Below, piece after piece: positions 3,238 through 40,025 of a stretch of 46,221 bases of DNA. The translations under genes and the position numbers were made by a program. The DNA comes from Candidatus Doudnabacteria bacterium. Its GTDB lineage: Bacteria; Patescibacteriota; Doudnabacteria; UBA920. The DNA lies in assembly GCA_016788665.1 (NCBI GenBank), contig JAEUSF010000001.1, positions 1-46,221 on the forward strand, given 5' to 3'. Every line of letters begins with the position of its first letter. The stretch's first letter is position 1. The notes under the pieces were generated by a model, which worked only from the letters and a program-made list of their open reading frames with translations, was not told the origin of the DNA and searched no databases.

Positions 3238-3744
3238 ATGAAAATCCTAAAGACTGTCTTGACACTAGGAATTTTGCTTTCAGTGCTGCTGAGCCTCAGG
3301 ATCTACTACCTTAGGCCAGTTATAGAAATCACAGGCAGTAAGGCCTGTCTGCCTGAACACCTGCACCACAAAACACACACTGACTGGGAGTTTAAAAAAC
3401 AAACCCCCTGGCACACTAACGTAATCTGTGATCACGGTCCGCCCCTGCAAGTTTGGGGTAACCAGGACTACTGGTCTGTGGCAGAAAACAAAAGAATAGG
3501 CCCAAAACCCATACCACGCCCAGGTGAGTGGCAGCTATCCCGAAAAACTTTTCCGACCCATAAAGGTCCGCGAGACCTGTACTACTTCGCATTCACCGTT
3601 CATATATTTGGCGAATGGTACCACTTCCGGGTAGCGGAATTTAGATGGGACGACGTAGACGGTTACTACATCTTTTTCTCCGCAGCAAGCAAGTTTCTGC
3701 CCATTGCCTGGGAAAGACTCCTGTGGCATCGCCAAAACGGCTAA
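3238..3744 (+). CDS. hypothetical N-terminally membrane-anchored or secreted protein (His/Trp/Pro-rich)
   Basis: 168-aa ORF with the hydrophobic N-terminus MKILKTVLTLGILLSVLLSL. A G-rich SD (CCGGGGGGTAG) sits directly before the ATG. It is visibly more G+C-rich than its neighbours and is followed by a terminator. Confidence 0.6.
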   Translation: MKILKTVLTLGILLSVLLSLRIYYLRPVIEITGSKACLPEHLHHKTHTDWEFKKQTPWHTNVICDHGPPLQVWGNQDYWSVAENKRIGPKPIPRPGEWQLSRKTFPTHKGPRDLYYFAFTVHIFGEWYHFRVAEFRWDDVDGYYIFFSAASKFLPIAWERLLWHRQNG

Positions 3745-3799: not shown

Positions 3800-6700
3800 T
3801 TACTCATTTGAGTCAGAAGCAGCGGAAAGAGCTTCTTCGGCCTTCAGGACTTCTTTTGCCAAAGTAGCATTGAAACCTGTACCTGCCGGGATAAGCTTAC
3901 CAATAATTACGTTTTCTTTAAGACCTCTTAAATAGTCAGTCTTACCTGTAACAGCAGCCTCTATAAGCACGCGCGTGGTTTCCTGGAAGGAAGCAGCGGC
4001 CAAGAAAGAGTCTGTATTCAAAGAAACCTTAGTAATACCCATTAAAAGCTGTTCCGCTTTTGCCGGGTTTCTACCGCTCTTTTGCAACTCTTCATTTATG
4101 AAATTTAGCTTTGATTTGTCAGCAATCTCACCTTCGACAAATTCGCTATCACCTGCATTTAGAATGCGCATCTTGCTAAACATCTGTCTAACAATGACCT
4201 CAATATGCTTGTCATGAATTTGTTGACCTTGGGAAGTATATATATCCAACACTTCCTTAACTATATATTTCTGAGCTGGCTGAGCACCCTCTAAAGCCAT
4301 TATTAAATGAGGGTCCAAGTTTCCTTCAGTCAAACGCTGACCTTTGGCTACCAAATCGCCTTCCTTAACCATTAAAGAAAAAGAGGCTGGAATAATATAT
4401 TCTTTTACCAAATCACTTTCGTGAATAATTTCTATAACAGATTTCTCACCTTTTTTGGATATTTTAACAATGCCGCCAACCTTCGCCTTTACAGACTTGC
4501 CATCTTGGTCTATAAACAAAGACTCCCCTTCTTCAATATGACTTCCGTCTTTTATTGCCGAAGGTGCTCCATTTAAGTCATAAGTATCTTTTTCAACATC
4601 AGCCCCCTGTATTCTTAAAATATACTCTTTGTTATTTGGCTTGGTAATATATGCCTGACCATCTACTTCGGAGACAAAAGCCTGTCCTTTTGGCTGTCTA
4701 GCTTCAAAAAGCTCTTCTACACGAGGCAACCCTTGGGTAATATCTTTAACCGCAGCCGAACCACCAGTGTGGAAAGTACGCATAGTAAGCTGGGTACCCG
4801 GTTCACCAATTGCCTGTGCAGCCACAATACCTATTGCAGCACCCAAAGAAACCATTTTATTAAAACCCAAATCAAAACCGTAACACTGCCTGCAAATTCC
4901 TCTAGTAAGCTTGCACTTCAAAACGCTTCGGCACTTAACTTCGGTAATACCAGCCTTAACTATTTCTCTTGCGGTATGGTCATCTATGGCTTCATTTTTA
5001 TGAACCAGAACCTGACCATTCACCATAACATCTTCCGCCGCAACACGACCAAACAATCGTCTGTCAAACGCCTTATTCATTCTTTCACTTTCAACAGCGT
5101 CTATAATACCAAACTCTTCGGTACCGCAATCTTCAGCATTAATAACTATATCTTGCGCAACATCCACCAAACGTCTGGTTAAATAACCAGCGTCAGCAGT
5201 CCTGAGAGCAGTATCGGACATACCTTTACGGCTACCGTGAGTGGAAATAAAATATTCCAAAACTTGCAAACCTTCCTTAAAGCTACCTTTTACAGGAAGC
5301 TCAATAACGTCACCAGCAGGGTTAACCACCAAACCTTTCATACCAGACATCTGTGAAATCTGAGACATGCTACCACGTCCACCGGAAGTAAAAATATAAT
5401 TCACGCTCGAATGTTTGTCTACAGTTTTCGCAACGTCTTTAGAAAGTCTTTCGGAAACCTCAGCCCAAATTTCAATTACCCTATTCTTTCTTTCTTCTTC
5501 AGTTAAGAGACCTTCTCTAAATTGCTGATATGTTTCTTCCACAGATTTTTCTGCTTCCAAAAACATCGCATGCTTAGAAGTCGGAACCCTTAAGTCATCC
5601 ATACCCCAAGAGAGGCCGGACTTTTTCATATAGGTAAACCCAGTTCGCTTAATCTCATCAATAAGTTCTGCGGTTTTGTCGTTACCCAACAGCCTATGAG
5701 CTTCGCGAACAAGTCCTTGCAGGCGCTTCTTATCGAACTGCTCGTTATGAAAACCCATTTCTTTTGGAATGACTTTGTTGAATATAAGCCTGCCTACAGA
5801 AGTTTCAATGATCGTTCCTTCTTCTACGCCAGAGTCAGCCGGCATTCTAACTTTTACCGTAGCTTGTATATTTACATAGCCGTTATTGTAAGCCATTATA
5901 GCTTCCTGCGGATTAGTAAATATCTTACCTTCGCCCTTCAAGCCTTCGCGCATGGCTGTTATATAGTAGCAACCTACAACCACGTCTTTATCCGGAGTCA
6001 TAACAGGATCACCCGAAGCAGGCTTAAGCAAGTTATGAGCAGACACCATAATTTCCCTAGCTTCCTTTTGAGCAGCTTCTGTCAAAGGAACATGTACAGC
6101 CATTTGGTCACCATCAAAGTCAGCATTAAAAGCCGCACATACCATAGGATGGAGTTGTATAGCCTTACCTTCTATAAGCACAGGCTGAAAAGCTTGAAAA
6201 CCTAAACGGTGCAAAGTCGGGGCACGGTTAAGAAGCACATAATGATCTTTAGTCACCTCTTCTAAAATATCCCAAACTTCATTCCTGGCTTGTTCAATAA
6301 GCCTGTTGGCGCTTCGTACGTTATGAGCATATTCACGCGCAATAAGTTTAGAAATAACGAAAGGCTTAAACAATTCGAGTGCCATTACCTTTGGCAAACC
6401 ACACTGGTGAAGTTTAAGTTCTGGACCCACAACAATAACGCTACGTCCAGAATAGTCAACGCGCTTACCTAGCAAGTTCTGTCTAAAACGTCCCTGTTTA
6501 CCTTTAAGCATATCAGCCAAAGAACGGAGTTTTCTTTTTTGCCCAGTAGACGCGGTAACCTCTTTACCATGCCTTACCGAGTTATCTATAAGAGCGTCAA
6601 CTGCTTCCTGCAACATACGCTTTTCATTACGAGTGATAACTTCCGGCGCTTTTATTTCAAGTAATTTCTTTAAACGATTATTTCTGTTAATTACACGCCT

Positions 6701-7717
6701 GTATAAATCGTTCAAATCTGATGCAGCAAAGCGTCCACCATCTAACTGGACCATAGGACGAAGATCAGGAGGAATAACCGGAAGAATATCTATAAGCATC
6801 CACTCTGGCCTTAAGCCGGAGTTGATTAAAGATTTTACCAACTTCATCCTCTTTAAAACCTTTCTTAAAGCCTGTCCTTCCAAATTTGGCAAAACTGAAG
6901 ACAGCTCGGCCGAAAGCTCTTCTAGATTTATTTCTTCCAATAAACCCTTCAAACTTTCCGCACCAATACCTGCAGTGAATACAGGACCATACTTTAAAGA
7001 CAGGTCCCTATACTGTAATTCGCTTATAACTTGGTATTTCTTAATAGACTTCAGCTCGCTCCTTGCCTGATCACGTATATCTTCTAAAGAATCCAGCTCT
7101 TTACTCCAAGCATCCTTAAGTCTTGTTACTTCAGCGTCTATTTCTGCCTGCAAAACATCTGGGTCTTTACCAGCTTTTTGACCCTTCTCAGCTTTCACCT
7201 TACCTATCATTGCCTCATACTTTTCTTCTATGAGCCTCTTTTTGGCTTTAAATTCCTTTTCAATCTGTTCCAACATGGAAGCACGTGCCTCTTCATCAAC
7301 TTTGGTAACTATATAAGAAGCAAAATAAACAACTTTTTCTAGCTCCATAACGCCTAAATCTAAAATTAGGCCAAGCCTGGAAGGCACACCTCTCAAGAAC
7401 CAAATATGAGTAACAGGCACAGAAAGCTTTATATGCCCCATGCGTTCTCGACGCACAGAAGACTTAGTAACCTCAACTCCACACTTATCACACACTATGC
7501 CTTTATATCTTATGCGTTTATACTTTCCGCAATAACATTCCCAATCTTTTATTGGACCAAAAATCTTTTCGTCGAAAAGACCATCTTTTTCTGGACGCTG
7601 AGTTCTATAATTTATAGTTTCCGGTTTGGTAACCTCGCCATGAGACCAGGCTAACATTGTGTCAGGGCTGGCCAATTTTAGCCTAACGCCTTTAAAATCT
7701 TCTGTTTGAGTTAACAT
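3800..7717 (-). CDS. rpoC: DNA-directed RNA polymerase subunit beta'
   Basis: 1305-aa ORF with the zinc-binding CYCGKYKRIRYKGIVCDKCGVEV, the catalytic NADFDGDQM motif and trigger-loop/bridge-helix blocks. Confidence 0.98.
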   Translation of the reverse strand: MLTQTEDFKGVRLKLASPDTMLAWSHGEVTKPETINYRTQRPEKDGLFDEKIFGPIKDWECYCGKYKRIRYKGIVCDKCGVEVTKSSVRRERMGHIKLSVPVTHIWFLRGVPSRLGLILDLGVMELEKVVYFASYIVTKVDEEARASMLEQIEKEFKAKKRLIEEKYEAMIGKVKAEKGQKAGKDPDVLQAEIDAEVTRLKDAWSKELDSLEDIRDQARSELKSIKKYQVISELQYRDLSLKYGPVFTAGIGAESLKGLLEEINLEELSAELSSVLPNLEGQALRKVLKRMKLVKSLINSGLRPEWMLIDILPVIPPDLRPMVQLDGGRFAASDLNDLYRRVINRNNRLKKLLEIKAPEVITRNEKRMLQEAVDALIDNSVRHGKEVTASTGQKRKLRSLADMLKGKQGRFRQNLLGKRVDYSGRSVIVVGPELKLHQCGLPKVMALELFKPFVISKLIAREYAHNVRSANRLIEQARNEVWDILEEVTKDHYVLLNRAPTLHRLGFQAFQPVLIEGKAIQLHPMVCAAFNADFDGDQMAVHVPLTEAAQKEAREIMVSAHNLLKPASGDPVMTPDKDVVVGCYYITAMREGLKGEGKIFTNPQEAIMAYNNGYVNIQATVKVRMPADSGVEEGTIIETSVGRLIFNKVIPKEMGFHNEQFDKKRLQGLVREAHRLLGNDKTAELIDEIKRTGFTYMKKSGLSWGMDDLRVPTSKHAMFLEAEKSVEETYQQFREGLLTEEERKNRVIEIWAEVSERLSKDVAKTVDKHSSVNYIFTSGGRGSMSQISQMSGMKGLVVNPAGDVIELPVKGSFKEGLQVLEYFISTHGSRKGMSDTALRTADAGYLTRRLVDVAQDIVINAEDCGTEEFGIIDAVESERMNKAFDRRLFGRVAAEDVMVNGQVLVHKNEAIDDHTAREIVKAGITEVKCRSVLKCKLTRGICRQCYGFDLGFNKMVSLGAAIGIVAAQAIGEPGTQLTMRTFHTGGSAAVKDITQGLPRVEELFEARQPKGQAFVSEVDGQAYITKPNNKEYILRIQGADVEKDTYDLNGAPSAIKDGSHIEEGESLFIDQDGKSVKAKVGGIVKISKKGEKSVIEIIHESDLVKEYIIPASFSLMVKEGDLVAKGQRLTEGNLDPHLIMALEGAQPAQKYIVKEVLDIYTSQGQQIHDKHIEVIVRQMFSKMRILNAGDSEFVEGEIADKSKLNFINEELQKSGRNPAKAEQLLMGITKVSLNTDSFLAAASFQETTRVLIEAAVTGKTDYLRGLKENVIIGKLIPAGTGFNATLAKEVLKAEEALSAASDSNE

Positions 7718-19931: not shown

Positions 19932-19960
19932 ATTTTAGCAGTGCGTGGAGATATTGACAA
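19932..19960 (-). promoter_or_regulatory. candidate ruvA promoter TTGTCA-17-TAAAAT
   Basis: Reverse complement of TGACAA at 19955-19960 and of ATTTTA at 19932-19937. Confidence 0.45.
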
Positions 19961-19980
19961 AAACCCTCGTATAATATAGA

Positions 19981-20392
19981 ATGTTGGAACTTTGGAAACC
20001 TGCACGAGAGACAACGTTCAAAAGACGAGCGCAGGTTTCCATGAAGGGCGGGATCGTCCTCCGCTTTCCCGCCCTTCTGCAAAGATTTCAGTTCGGGAGC
20101 CGCGACTGGTCCTTTATCCCTTCGAGGACCATAAACCGCGGCCTCCCAGCCGAAGAAGTCCTCGAGCCCAGCTCGGACACTTCGGCACCCAGAGCCGCTT
20201 CGGCGACAACATGCACATTTCCCTTTCGCTCTCTTTAGGGGAACAGCACGTCGCCGAAGCGGCCACAACTTAAACGAGGAATTCATCTTTCAAAAAAAAG
20301 ATCTGTTAGCGTCCCTTCATCCAGATGAATCCCTCTCCTTGCGGAGGTCGGACATGGCTTAAAACCAATTCCGACCTCCGCTTCTTTCGTTA
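19981..20392. ncRNA. G+C-rich, helix-dense non-coding element (unclassified structured RNA or uvrB leader)
   Basis: Contains at least 9 perfect or near-perfect inverted repeats of 6-14 bp. The only ORFs are mutually overlapping and not protein-like. There is a sharp G+C jump relative to the flanks. The terminal hairpin 20341-20352/20370-20381 is followed by TTCTTTCGTT on the plus strand. Confidence 0.6.
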
Positions 20393-22557: not shown

Positions 22558-22585
22558 TTGACATAACGCTTATGTAAGCTAAAAT
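22558..22585 (+). promoter_or_regulatory. promoter TTGACA-16-TAAAAT
   Basis: TTGACA at 22558-22563 and TAAAAT at 22580-22585. The -35 lies in the inverted repeat ATGTCAAG/CTTGACAT. Confidence 0.5.
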
Positions 22586-22660
22586 ATTTTGGTAACATTA
22601 CCGTCCTTCCTATGGGCCGGTTTTTGTTTCTAAAACATCTACAACTACAAGGAGAGGGAA

Positions 22661-23314
22661 ATGCTCTGGATGACTCTGGTTATGAGCTTTTGCGCCTTCG
22701 GCCAGGAGCCAACAAACCACGGAAGCGCGCCGGTCTCAAACTCTTTCTTCCGCTGGCAGGCGCCGGCGGTTGCAGTGGAAGTGTTGGGATCAAGTGCATT
22801 TAGCCGGCTGTCGGCTTACGCGCAGTTCGGCAAACTGCGTCTGACAGGCGCCACGGTGCGCTCGGAAGGCCATAGCTTTCAGCAGATAACCACAGGCTGG
22901 GTCTTCGCTCCTCTAAAGAGCGAGGAAACCGAGTTCTTTATTGAACCCTTCGTGGGTTCCGCCTTGACTCGGGAAGGTTCCAGGCTGGCAGCAGGAGGGA
23001 GGTTCGTATACCTCTCTAAAAATTGGTTCCTCGAAAACTGGACCACCAAGTACGGTGGTCACAACGGCTGGACTAACTGCGAACCCCTCATGGACGTCAT
23101 GAGACACGTGGGAAAAGGGTTCTATGTGGGAGCAGCTTCCAGCTGCTACGTTGGAACCGAACACCACGAAGAAAAAGCCGAGCGTCATGCTCACTTTTTT
23201 GCGGGACCCGGCATGCTATACCGGCGAGGGAACCTTGACGTGGGAGCTTCGTACGAGTTTCAACTAAGAGGCAACCAGAAATTCTGGGCGGTATTTGGCA
23301 CCTACACATTTTAG
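22661..23314 (+). CDS. secreted beta-barrel-like protein, G+C-rich (paralog of 39329-39862)
   Basis: SD AAGGAGAGGGAA before the ATG. Signal peptide MLWMTLVMSFCAFGQE. Alternating hydrophobic pattern and a C-terminus ...FWAVFGTYTF that ends in Phe. Confidence 0.7.
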   Translation: MLWMTLVMSFCAFGQEPTNHGSAPVSNSFFRWQAPAVAVEVLGSSAFSRLSAYAQFGKLRLTGATVRSEGHSFQQITTGWVFAPLKSEETEFFIEPFVGSALTREGSRLAAGGRFVYLSKNWFLENWTTKYGGHNGWTNCEPLMDVMRHVGKGFYVGAASSCYVGTEHHEEKAERHAHFFAGPGMLYRRGNLDVGASYEFQLRGNQKFWAVFGTYTF

Positions 23315-23499
23315 TGAGCCAACCGCTCGCTTAAGGACTTTAAAGTTTGAAACATAACTTAGAAGTCCTTTTTTATTTGGGCTTGTTTTTTTTAGTGAAT
23401 TTTGCTAAAATCATTTTATCTTACAAACCAATTCGGGTGTCGCTGAGTTGGCCAAAAAAGACAACTAACCACTAAATACTAGCTCCCAGCAACTAAACC

Positions 23500-29267: not shown

Positions 29268-29320
29268 GTAAAATTTCTATTTAAACTTTATAAGGGCATT
29301 ATACAAGAATATAAGACAAA

Positions 29321-29349
29321 TAAAAAAGGGCACAACTTTACGTTGTGCC
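29321..29349 (-). terminator. rho-independent terminator of the small ORF
   Basis: Stem GGCACAAC/GUUGUGCC followed by CUUUUUUAUUU in the minus-strand sense. Confidence 0.75.
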
Positions 29350-29361
29350 ATGACCGTTGGA

Positions 29362-29490
29362 TTAGTGGGTCAAGTGCGGCCCCGGCGGAAAGGGCTCGAA
29401 GTCGTGCTCCAAGCCTGGGCATCCGCACCCAGGCCCGCACGCCAGGGCCAACATGGCCCCTAAAAAAAACACCGTCAACATTTTTTTCAT
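29362..29490 (-). CDS. 42-aa secreted or lipoprotein-like Cys/Gly/Pro-rich peptide (not in the ORF track)
   Basis: My translation is MKKMLTVFFLGAMLALACGPGCGCPGLEHDFEPFPPGPHLTH. The SD AAAGGTGAT sits 5 nt before the ATG and a strong terminator lies just downstream. The ORF is G+C-rich. Confidence 0.6.
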   Translation of the reverse strand: MKKMLTVFFLGAMLALACGPGCGCPGLEHDFEPFPPGPHLTH

Positions 29491-30411: not shown

Positions 30412-31260
30412 TTATGGAAAAACGGATGAGGAGGACCCGTTTCCAATTATCCCACGCCTCAAGGTAAACGTCTCCTTCAGACCCCCGAAGTTTACCACAA
30501 TGTCATACGCCGCCGCTGTAGGGTTGCCCAAGGGGAAAGGAAAATAAATCCTGCTGAGAGTACCGTTTCCAGCCTGAACCTTCAACACAGCTGGAATAAA
30601 AGCGTAAAAGAAGTTAGGCTGCCCAAACGCCACCATAGTGGAGTCGTCGGGAAACACCCCTTCCAAAACAACCGTTTGTGTGTTTCCGCTTTCAACAACC
30701 TTTGCGCTGTCGAGGTGATAGGGTGTACGCCCCCTGTATCCCGCCGTTACAACATAGTAACGGCAGAATATTTGTTGTAAAATCTGGCCGCCGGGCGAGC
30801 GAGCTATCACAACGTCAAATAGCACGCTATGGCCTTGCTGCTGCTCGGGCGACACCCGCCCGGTATACACAGGAATGGCTGGGAGCGTGGGAAGTTTTTC
30901 AAAGTGCCCGAAAAGCCCACCCTCAACACTAAACCAGGCTTCGCTCATAAGCGAACCGTCTAGGTTGAAATGCCGGCGACGTCCGTAAACGTCCACCGAC
31001 CCTTCCGGAATTCTGCCCGGGGCTAAATCCAAAAATAACCTCACCTCCTCACCCGGCTGCGCGAACTCCCCAACACTACTTCGAAGGAGCGCAAAATTTA
31101 ACGGTACAACACTAAGCCCTCGGCCGTTTTTCGCGGCCTCAGGCCGTTCGCATTCCTGCCCGCAGTTCTTGTAGAACTGCTCAGCAGTCATACGATCCTG
31201 CCCAAACATCGCGCTGGCCAAGGCCAGCGAAAAAAGAACAAGCGTGATAACGAGGCGCAT
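30412..31260 (-). CDS. secreted hypothetical protein, G+C-rich
   Basis: SD AGGGGGGTG 6-7 nt before the ATG. Signal peptide MRLVITLVLFSLALASAMFGQD. 282 aa and rich in beta-strand-type sequence. Confidence 0.7.
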   Translation of the reverse strand: MRLVITLVLFSLALASAMFGQDRMTAEQFYKNCGQECERPEAAKNGRGLSVVPLNFALLRSSVGEFAQPGEEVRLFLDLAPGRIPEGSVDVYGRRRHFNLDGSLMSEAWFSVEGGLFGHFEKLPTLPAIPVYTGRVSPEQQQGHSVLFDVVIARSPGGQILQQIFCRYYVVTAGYRGRTPYHLDSAKVVESGNTQTVVLEGVFPDDSTMVAFGQPNFFYAFIPAVLKVQAGNGTLSRIYFPFPLGNPTAAAYDIVVNFGGLKETFTLRRGIIGNGSSSSVFP

Positions 31261-38851: not shown

Positions 38852-39295
38852 ATGAAAACCGTAGCAGTTTCTGGAGGTTTTGATCCAATTCATATTGGCC
38901 ATGTAGAAATGTTTCAGGAAGCAAAGGCTCTTGGCGAAAAACTAATTGTCATAGTTAACAATGACAATTGGTTAATGAAGAAAAAAGGTTTCGTCTTCAT
39001 GCCAGAAAAGGAGCGCGTAGAAATAATAAAATCAATCAGGTACGTTGACGAAGTTATTTTAACCAAACACGAACCCGGCCCTAAAGACATGTCTGTATGC
39101 CAAGCGCTGGAAGAACTCAGGCCTGATATATTCGCCAATGGGGGAGACAGAAAACCAGACGGCGACCCTGTGCCTGAAGTCGAACTTTGTAATAGGCTTG
39201 GCATAGAACTTGTATACAATATTGGCAAAAGCGGAAAAATTCAAAGCTCAAGCGAGCTTGTAAAAAAAGCCAAAGAAAAGACCACTGCAAAATAA
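38852..39295 (+). CDS. cytidylyltransferase-family nucleotidyltransferase (RfaE domain II / TagD-like)
   Basis: The block VAVSGGFDPIHIGHVEMFQEAKALG contains the HxGH-type motif. Confidence 0.85.
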   Translation: MKTVAVSGGFDPIHIGHVEMFQEAKALGEKLIVIVNNDNWLMKKKGFVFMPEKERVEIIKSIRYVDEVILTKHEPGPKDMSVCQALEELRPDIFANGGDRKPDGDPVPEVELCNRLGIELVYNIGKSGKIQSSSELVKKAKEKTTAK

Positions 39296-39328
39296 TGCAG
39301 TGGTTTTAAAATATTTAGCTTGCCCTCT

Positions 39329-39862
39329 TTATCTAAAAATCCAGCGAACGCCCATTACGCCAATTAGTTTTTTGGTACAAAAAAAATCGGACCACAAAAC
39401 CAAAGGCATTTTTTTTAGCCGGTATTCTACCCTGAGCCCCGAACCCTTATTAACTTGGCTTAAAACCCCTAAGCCAAATCCTTTGCCCAAAGGATACCCC
39501 GCCTCCACTCTCCAAAAAAAACCGCTGCCCCCGGTCTCCAAGATAAGCAAACCCTTGCCCCCTTTACGATTCACAGCCGCGAAGCCGCCTATCCTTAAAG
39601 GGTCACTGTTTTGCTCGAGCCCAGCCCCAGCAGCCACCTGCAGCCACTCTGTTGGCAAGTAGGTAAGCCCTGCGTAACTTTGGCTGTACTCTTTATCGGC
39701 CTGAAACCAAACAAAGGTTCCGGTTTTTGGCGTTAGTGCTGACGTATAAATTCCGGCCAGCCGGCTTTTCAAAGAATGCGAGGAAATGTGCACTCTCTCC
39801 TCTACCCACCCCTGCCCAAAACACAACCCGCTTGCAAGCCAAATTGCAAATAAACTAATCAT
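39329..39862 (-). CDS. secreted beta-barrel-like protein, G+C-rich (paralog of 22661-23314)
   Basis: The start at the ATG 39862 follows the SD GAAGGGGGAGAG. Signal peptide MISLFAIWLASGLCFGQG. Motifs are colinear with the paralog: SRL, G.GL...L..GGF, LE., GKGF, and Y.[FL] near the C-terminus. Confidence 0.65.
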   Translation of the reverse strand: MISLFAIWLASGLCFGQGWVEERVHISSHSLKSRLAGIYTSALTPKTGTFVWFQADKEYSQSYAGLTYLPTEWLQVAAGAGLEQNSDPLRIGGFAAVNRKGGKGLLILETGGSGFFWRVEAGYPLGKGFGLGVLSQVNKGSGLRVEYRLKKMPLVLWSDFFCTKKLIGVMGVRWIFR

Positions 39863-40025
39863 CTCTCCCCCTTCACCCATAAACTTATTCTGAACATATA
39901 ATAATATCAAATCTTATTTGCTTGTCAATTATATTTCAACAATTTAATAAATATTTTTAAAATTTCCTTTACTTATTGACATATTTTATGTTGACAATTT
40001 TTCAACAACAGGCTAACCTAAGCTT

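Follow-up and report, generated by a model that had tools for sequence, protein, structure and literature searches.

Two orphan families of predicted 12-stranded outer-membrane-type beta-barrels in a Saccharibacteria-like CPR lineage

Transmembrane beta-barrels are regarded as a hallmark of diderm envelopes and of organelles, and arguments over how the outer membrane arose and was lost use Patescibacteria as a monoderm reference. Among the closest structural counterparts of the two proteins reported here, the members of the KdgM/NanC family (PDB 4fqe, 4pr7, 2wjq, and 8xua) have about 160 to 200 mature residues in 12 antiparallel strands, with short turns and a polar lumen, and occur in Proteobacteria that possess LPS and BAM. 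Patescibacteria and Saccharibacteria, in turn, are described as monoderm (PMC12857230; PMC8871954; bioRxiv 10.64898/2026.03.03.709456). In the full-text literature we found no description of OMP-type barrels in either group, and Wang et al. 2023 (PMC10633639) mention neither barrels nor porins. Here, from a computational analysis, we report two genes, A and B, from a Saccharibacteria-like genome whose products are predicted to share the size, strand number, short turns, and polar lumen of KdgM and NanC, which are among their best structural matches (TM 0.51 to 0.63).

The window, by which we mean the whole stretch of 46,221 nucleotides that was analyzed, contains genes for FemAB, VanW, a Mur ligase, PilB (T2SSE), TsaE, and a truncated TsaB-like ORF, as well as TrmB, PaaX_M, and DnaA/DnaN/RecF. 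The CPR-like gene context that had been noted from the sequence was borne out: the window has FemAB, VanW, TsaE, a short TsaB-like ORF, and PilB and shows no outer-membrane genes. The nearest genome, titled "uncultured Candidatus Saccharibacteria bacterium," was the sole hit in a collection of 185,579 species; its contig is colinear with the window and encodes orthologues with 86% (A) and 60% (B) identity. Gene content and the label of this relative would fit a phylogenetic placement of the contig as Patescibacteria/Saccharibacteria. No gene for BamA/Omp85, Lpt, Lol, Tol, or a secretin was detected in the window or in the related loci L001 to L007 (about 100 kb, roughly 10% of a genome). Reads with this sequence came from bioreactor and sludge metagenomes and from some groundwater or freshwater metagenomes.

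Both ORFs singled out in the original prediction are present at the coordinates given there. Gene A (22661 to 23314, plus strand) has a GC content of 55% (GC3, 63%), and its ORF translates into 217 amino acids. It is preceded by a sigma-70-like promoter (22558 to 22585, plus strand; TTGACA-16-TAAAAT, 11 of 12 consensus matches) and by a Shine-Dalgarno sequence, AGGAG, read from the sequence 6 nt 5' of the ATG (22650 to 22654, plus strand). A possible terminator, recognized by eye and by MFE folding, lies downstream of the gene (23333 to 23375, plus strand; AAGGACTT ... AAGTCCTT and then a T-run); its long loop kept it out of the results of the consensus scan. Sequence features point to a Sec-type signal peptide at residues 1 to 14 with probable cleavage between AFG and Q, and this is followed by a variable linker (residues 15 to 35) and a predicted 12-stranded beta-barrel (residues 36 to 216). 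Two family-conserved motifs, GWTNCEPL with Cys140 and SSCY with Cys162 (23078 to 23146, plus strand), place their cysteines on neighboring strands in the model, and a disulfide is therefore possible. The longest loop, between strands 9 and 10, is the His-rich EHHEEKAERHAH (23159 to 23194, plus strand); its length differs among family members, and its His-richness is kept. In the predicted fold, the conserved charges R49, E69, R114, E125, and E199 of the A family face the lumen. One may speculate that these charges, together with GWTNCEPL/SSCY and the His-rich loop, confer metal or solute selectivity. The protein closes with the strand end AVFGTYTF (23288 to 23311, plus strand), which places aromatic residues at positions 0 and -2 and resembles an OMP beta-signal. 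This C-terminus is as the original prediction had described it, and Y-x-F-COOH is kept in most A-family members.

Gene B (39329 to 39862, minus strand; 49% GC) encodes 177 amino acids from its ATG, and an alternative TTG start at 39910 would give 193 amino acids. A sigma-70-like promoter (39901 to 39928, minus strand; TTGACA-16-TATTAT with TG, 11 of 12 consensus matches) precedes the gene, and a Shine-Dalgarno sequence, GGGGGAG, can be read on the minus strand just 5' of the ATG. Sequence features suggest a signal peptide at residues 1 to 16 with probable cleavage between CFG and Q, and the predicted 12-stranded beta-barrel, with very short loops, spans residues 16 to 176. Near its end lies G-V-R-W-I-F (39335 to 39352, minus strand), a beta-signal-like motif of the form G-x-x-aromatic-x-hydrophobic, and six of the seven B-family members have G[VIL]RW near the C-terminus. 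It had been proposed that the last 16 residues of B were added by a stop-codon shift. However, these residues are conserved in the family as FFC.KK....G[VIL]RW.. (the orthologue P0004 ends in FFCSKKPVLVVGVRWVFN) and build strand 12 in the AlphaFold2 model, and the stop-codon shift is thereby refuted. Downstream of B, 25 nt past the stop, lies an intrinsic terminator with a 9-bp stem and a T-run (39281 to 39304, minus strand, the strand of B itself); it overlaps the 3' end of the cytidylyltransferase gene that converges on B. The coding sequence of B contains three homopolymers, A8 (39409 to 39416), T8 (39379 to 39386), and A6 (39368 to 39373). These runs probably lay behind the idea of a shifted stop; they are potential sites of slippage or sequencing error, and the orthologue confirms the frame.

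The signal-peptide-like N-terminal segments that had been seen in both proteins are present. A, B, and nearly all of their family members begin with a hydrophobic N-terminal helix that leads to a small-x-small site followed by Gln, and from these features we judge that both proteins are probably exported via Sec. At the other end, both proteins have an OMP beta-signal-like sequence, F-G-T-Y-T-F-COOH in A and G-V-R-W-I-F-R in B. The B-family consensus G-[VIL]-R-W-x-[FLI], followed by 0 or 1 residue, fits the beta-signal, while the A-family consensus F-G-[ST]-Y-[TS]-F-COOH has aromatic residues at 0 and -2 and its Gly shifted by one; in both cases the motif is short. A lipoprotein reading was discarded for lack of a lipobox and of a conserved Cys in the signal peptide. 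The Gln-start pattern recalls the "Q-rule" of Bacteroidetes, that is, pyroglutamate N-termini. In the signal peptides of A (22661 to 22705), B (39815 to 39862), a further ORF at 30412 to 31260, and the family members, nearly all sites read small-x-[GA] and then Gln, so that the mature proteins of A, B, and this third ORF would begin with Gln.

Orthologues of A share 86% (P0001) and 53% (P0002) identity with it, and when all 1.84 billion representatives were searched with HMMER, the A family came to only 10 clusters at 50% identity. For B, BLASTP found orthologues at 60% (P0004) and 41 to 44% identity, P0007 shares 38% in the multiple alignment, and P0009 is a distant relative at 32%; the family recovered by profile search has 7 proteins. 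Each family amounts to about 10 clusters among billions of proteins, and a genome scan across a 185,579-species collection and a metagenome scan each returned one locus. Orthologues of A lie upstream of rpsT and a RhuM/Fic gene, in an order kept in independent assemblies. Those of B, also in independent assemblies, have a TrmB regulator gene on one side and a cytidylyltransferase gene on the other, and recF-dnaN-dnaA is a few kilobases away. The orthologues with these gene orders are those at 86%, 53%, and 60% identity and one at 41% by multiple alignment. The neighborhoods of A and B are kept in four lineages. The dN/dS of gene A (Nei-Gojobori) is 0.07 to 0.2, with dS above 1 or saturated, and comes close to that of neighboring genes: 0.07 against L001 (dS, 1.26) and 0.10 against L002, with 0.03 to 0.09 in the neighbors. 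For gene B, pN is 0.29 to 0.44, and no dN/dS ratio can be given because its synonymous sites are saturated. A and B are protein-coding genes under purifying selection. No donor homologue outside the clade was found for either gene in sequence searches that included the 1.84 billion representatives, and the best explanation is that A and B are vertically inherited core genes of a Saccharibacteria-like (CPR) clade. Separately, locus L007 (GCA_030704715.1), whose contig has 51% GC and carries pyrF, gyrA, and a response regulator gene, contains a B-family fragment (P0008), so that this family is also present in a higher-GC genome.

We then turned to the fold of the two proteins. AlphaFold2 was run on the family alignments, which are shallow (13 sequences for A and 7 for B). 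For A, the best model reached a pLDDT of 83.1 and a pTM of 0.74, with all five models at 80 to 83, and for B the best model reached 76.9 and 0.68, with the other four at only 53 to 65. Both models show an N-terminal helix, corresponding to the signal peptide, and then 12 antiparallel strands joined by short hairpins, rather than the approximately 8 strands that had been expected. When the models were compared with the PDB by Foldseek, all of the 50 matches listed per model were transmembrane beta-barrels, nearly all of them natural outer-membrane proteins and a few designed; 46 of those listed for A and 26 for B had an E value of ≤1e-3. They include KdgM, NanC, VhGalP, intimin/invasin beta-domains, OmpG, FapF, OMPLA, PcoB, and TMB10/12, and the 12-stranded ones (KdgM, NanC, intimin/invasin, PcoB, FapF, and designed TMB) align at TM 0.5 to 0.65. 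From these alignments we infer that A and B would each form a closed antiparallel barrel. The alternating hydrophobic/polar pattern that had been noticed by eye was confirmed by strand-face analysis. Averaged over the family, one face has a KD value of +1.1 (A) and +1.5 (B) and is 0 to 10% charged on nearly every strand, and the opposite face has values of -0.6 and -0.9 and is mostly 20 to 50% charged, a pattern that agrees with barrels whose outside faces lipid and whose lumen is filled with water. The longer loops of A (L4 to L6; 5, 8, and 5 residues) all lie on one side, as in OMPs; with a periplasmic N-terminus, this would be the extracellular side. We predict with fair to good confidence that A and B are 12-stranded outer-membrane-type barrels. 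In the viral structure library BFVD, too, the best matches were mainly OMP-type barrels. A phage or plasmid origin was considered and rejected, given that the B family had no match in viral contigs and that the BFVD folds were mainly generic OMP-like barrels.

By sequence, neither protein could be assigned to a described family. Pfam returned none at E ≤ 10 (OmpA_membrane, OmpW, OMP_b-brl, and KdgM included), NCBIfam gave no match, and sequence-profile searches of the PDB yielded only noise. By these searches, A and B are orphan families without sequence relatives in Pfam, NCBIfam, or the PDB. What would be new, on the predicted folds, is that a lineage not expected to make OMP-type barrels has them, and in novel sequence families. 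The central claim of the original prediction, OMP-like barrels with signal peptides in a Patescibacteria-type genome, is supported by the fold prediction, the fold search, the strand faces, and the label of the relative, while its paralogy, its eight strands, and its shifted stop fall away.

The reading that we favor, with confidence slightly better than even, is that A and B are two functional, Sec-exported 12-stranded outer-membrane-type barrels of different families and core genes of a Saccharibacteria-like clade of sludge and bioreactors. Sec would export both precursors, the probable cleavage site lying directly in front of Gln, and each mature protein would fold as a monomeric, antiparallel beta-barrel of 12 strands, hydrophobic outside and polar and charged in the lumen. 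The barrels would sit in a lipid layer outside the cytoplasmic membrane of the cell and, as we infer, work as small, passive channels comparable to KdgM and NanC. Our single best guess at their destination, and a tentative one, is the outer membrane of a host at the epibiont-host contact site, where they might serve as a nutrient conduit; it is the best guess because Patescibacteria are described as monoderm. Insertion into a host would fit the epibiotic lifestyle as well as the monoderm description. It faces a kinetic barrier (spontaneous insertion into native membranes is slow), and no monomeric OMP-type barrel is known to be delivered into the membrane of another cell. Close behind, and likewise doubtful, comes an unrecognized outer lipid layer of the bacterium itself, with an Omp85-type insertase. 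This destination would suit both the C-termini, which resemble a beta-signal, and the location of the genes, which is like that of housekeeping genes, and stands against all current descriptions of the phylum. That a clade of Saccharibacteria (CPR), a phylum regarded as monoderm and BAM-less, makes genuine OMP-type barrels, be it as feeding channels inserted into the outer membrane of the host or in a second membrane with an unrecognized insertion route, strikes us as a little short of an even chance. If either were true, views of the CPR cell envelope, or of the way in which epibionts draw on their hosts, would have to change.

The alternative that survives best, although we regard it as unlikely, is that A and B are ordinary OMPs and that the lineage or clade has an outer membrane of its own with an Omp85/BAM insertase. 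The signal peptides, the even number of strands, and C-termini of the form Y-x-F or G-x-x-W-x-hydrophobic would all fit BAM substrates. A and B also look like constitutive core genes, near oriC and outside effector or pilus islands, and at least two separate barrel families occur in one genome. Against this stand the Saccharibacteria label of the relative, the description of the phylum as monoderm (PMC12857230; PMC8871954), the absence of BamA, Lpt, Lol, Tol, and secretin genes from the window and from L001 to L007, and the fit of FemAB and VanW with a Gram-positive-type wall.

Slightly less likely again is that A and B are not membrane barrels at all but secreted or wall-associated beta-rich sandwiches or soluble barrels, with AlphaFold2 over-predicting the fold. 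The shallow alignments, the low confidence of the other four models of B, the lack of a sequence match to any OMP family, and an organism that presumably has no outer membrane would agree with such proteins. It is harder to reconcile them with the agreement among all five models of A (pLDDT, 80 to 83) or with the finding that every structural neighbor among the matches listed is an outer-membrane barrel. Over 12 strands, moreover, one face is nearly free of charge and hydrophobic and the opposite face is heavily charged, a pattern ill-suited to a 12-stranded soluble barrel with a hydrophobic core.

The original prediction had taken A and B for paralogues that align colinearly, and the short motifs on which it relied (FGQ, SRL, GKGF, FLEN/ILET, and GG[RF]) are found in both sequences. 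The colinear similarity itself did not rise above chance by BLASTP, shuffling, or hhalign. BLASTP of A against B gave a best E value of 6.9, global and local BLOSUM62 scores had z values of -0.8 to +0.3 relative to 500 shuffles, and hhalign of small family profiles returned a probability of 0.07%. With deeper profiles (13 and 7 sequences), hhalign produced a colinear alignment of 147 columns that pairs the GKGF motifs, but at a probability of only 0.9% (P = 0.06). Judged in this way, A and B appear to come from different sequence families, and very remote homology is not shown. We consider it improbable that they are diverged paralogues of one ancestral barrel gene that was duplicated within the lineage. 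The identical predicted fold and strand number, the signal peptides that both end in FG before Q, and the 147-column alignment with paired GKGF motifs at P = 0.06 speak for such a duplication; they are set against a BLASTP E value of 6.9, shuffle z values near 0, hhalign probabilities of 0.07 to 0.9%, and the expectation that chance alone yields short Gly-rich motifs in beta-hairpin proteins.

Both ORFs coincide with sharp GC islands (55 to 61% for A and 50 to 56% for B; window mean, 39%), and in AT-rich genomes a GC island is frequently a structured RNA. Rfam had nothing that reached gathering score anywhere in the window, and on the A and B regions its matches at E ≤ 10 were only noise; ARAGORN gave no match. 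Hidden RNA genes at A and B were rejected on these negative searches, the conservation of the ORFs, and the low dN/dS. The GC3 of A is 0.63, compared with approximately 0.33 to 0.38 in its neighbors, and lies at 0.60 to 0.62 in orthologues of three other lineages (L001 2701 to 3357, L002 7081 to 7758, and L008 551 to 1240). In these four lineages, the background GC3 is about 0.33. The high GC3 of A has been kept despite saturated synonymous sites, and the GC content is therefore maintained rather than a fading trace of recent transfer. In three orthologues, the A coding sequence folds more tightly than synonymous-codon shuffles (z, -3.2 to -4.6; controls, -0.5 to -2.9), which is only suggestive of an over-structured mRNA in the A family. 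That the islands are structured RNA genes or relics of recent transfer with nonfunctional ORFs is hardly credible: although both ORFs lie on sharp GC islands (55 to 61% against 39%), the A transcript has folding z values of -5.8 (dinucleotide shuffles) and -3.2 to -4.6 (synonymous-codon shuffles), and stop codons are scarce in GC-rich DNA, there is no Rfam match, the ORFs are intact at 41 to 53% protein identity with a dN/dS of 0.07 to 0.2 for A at saturated dS, the neighborhood is kept in four lineages, each gene has its own promoter and Shine-Dalgarno sequence, and no donor homologue was found.

Other GC-rich features were observed in the window and in related loci. Two GC-rich ORFs encode exported proteins, as A does. 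The first (30412 to 31260, minus strand; GC3, 0.57 to 0.60) is a third GC-rich gene and encodes a 282-amino-acid beta-rich exported protein whose signal peptide ends in MFG before Q; the protein is matched by neither Pfam nor NCBIfam, has orthologues at L001 10856 to 11872 and L005 15847 to 16932, and is kept between pilB and polA in relatives. The second (3238 to 3744, plus strand) encodes 168 amino acids with an N-terminal hydrophobic anchor, is rich in Trp and His, and has no family match. Between ruvA and uvrB lies a GC-rich island of about 400 nt (19954 to 20392, plus strand) with its own promoter (TTGACA-17-TAGAAT, 19954 to 19982) and a strong terminal hairpin with a T-run (about 20341 to 20392). 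Its MFE is -178 kcal/mol, compared with -117 ± 6 kcal/mol in shuffles (z = -10), and the ORFs on either strand look spurious. Rfam gave nothing at E ≤ 1 except hairpin noise, and no tmRNA was found, making the island a candidate for a large structured RNA of no known family. A short GC-rich island directly upstream of the polA start (29270 to 29460, minus strand) is 80.5% identical to L001 9723 to 9912, which holds the same position in the contig of the relative; it has no Rfam match and may represent a small RNA or a leader that is conserved. In L002, two tandem modules (4183 to 6957) directly precede the A orthologue, each with a small PEP-utilizers-domain protein (108 and 113 amino acids) and then a protein of about 310 to 345 amino acids without a family, and L002 2550 to 4089 contains two GC-rich genes without matches.

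If the favored reading holds, the A and B barrels would offer a testable handle on membrane location, on insertion without a known BAM, and on the use that epibionts make of such proteins on their hosts. They would also add two compact natural 12-stranded families of about 160 to 190 residues, possibly of interest for nanopore and membrane-protein-folding work.

A comparison with described barrels places A and B as follows. Small 8-stranded OMPs (OmpA_membrane, OmpW, OmpX, and OMP_b-brl) resemble them in size, signal peptide, and aromatic C-terminus, whereas A and B are predicted to have 12 strands, have no Pfam match, and do not count these OMPs among their best structural matches. Intimin/invasin, autotransporter beta-domains, FapF, OMPLA, and PcoB share the 12-stranded barrel with the A and B models (TM 0.5 to 0.65), and the copper protein PcoB offers a loose parallel to the His-rich loop of A. 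Unlike this group, A and B carry no passenger, plug, or periplasmic domain and show no sequence similarity to it, and a catalytic triad could not be assigned in either. KdgM and NanC, so similar in architecture, differ from A and B in sequence (identity of 8 to 12%, no sequence similarity, and no Pfam match at E ≤ 10) and in host, being proteins of Proteobacteria with LPS and BAM rather than of a Saccharibacteria-like genome. The designed barrels TMB12 (PDB 9fdg) and TMB10 (PDB 8uzl) are, like the model of B, minimal barrels with loops of 2 to 5 residues at both ends; in contrast to these designs, A and B are of natural origin, are conserved, and evolve under purifying selection.
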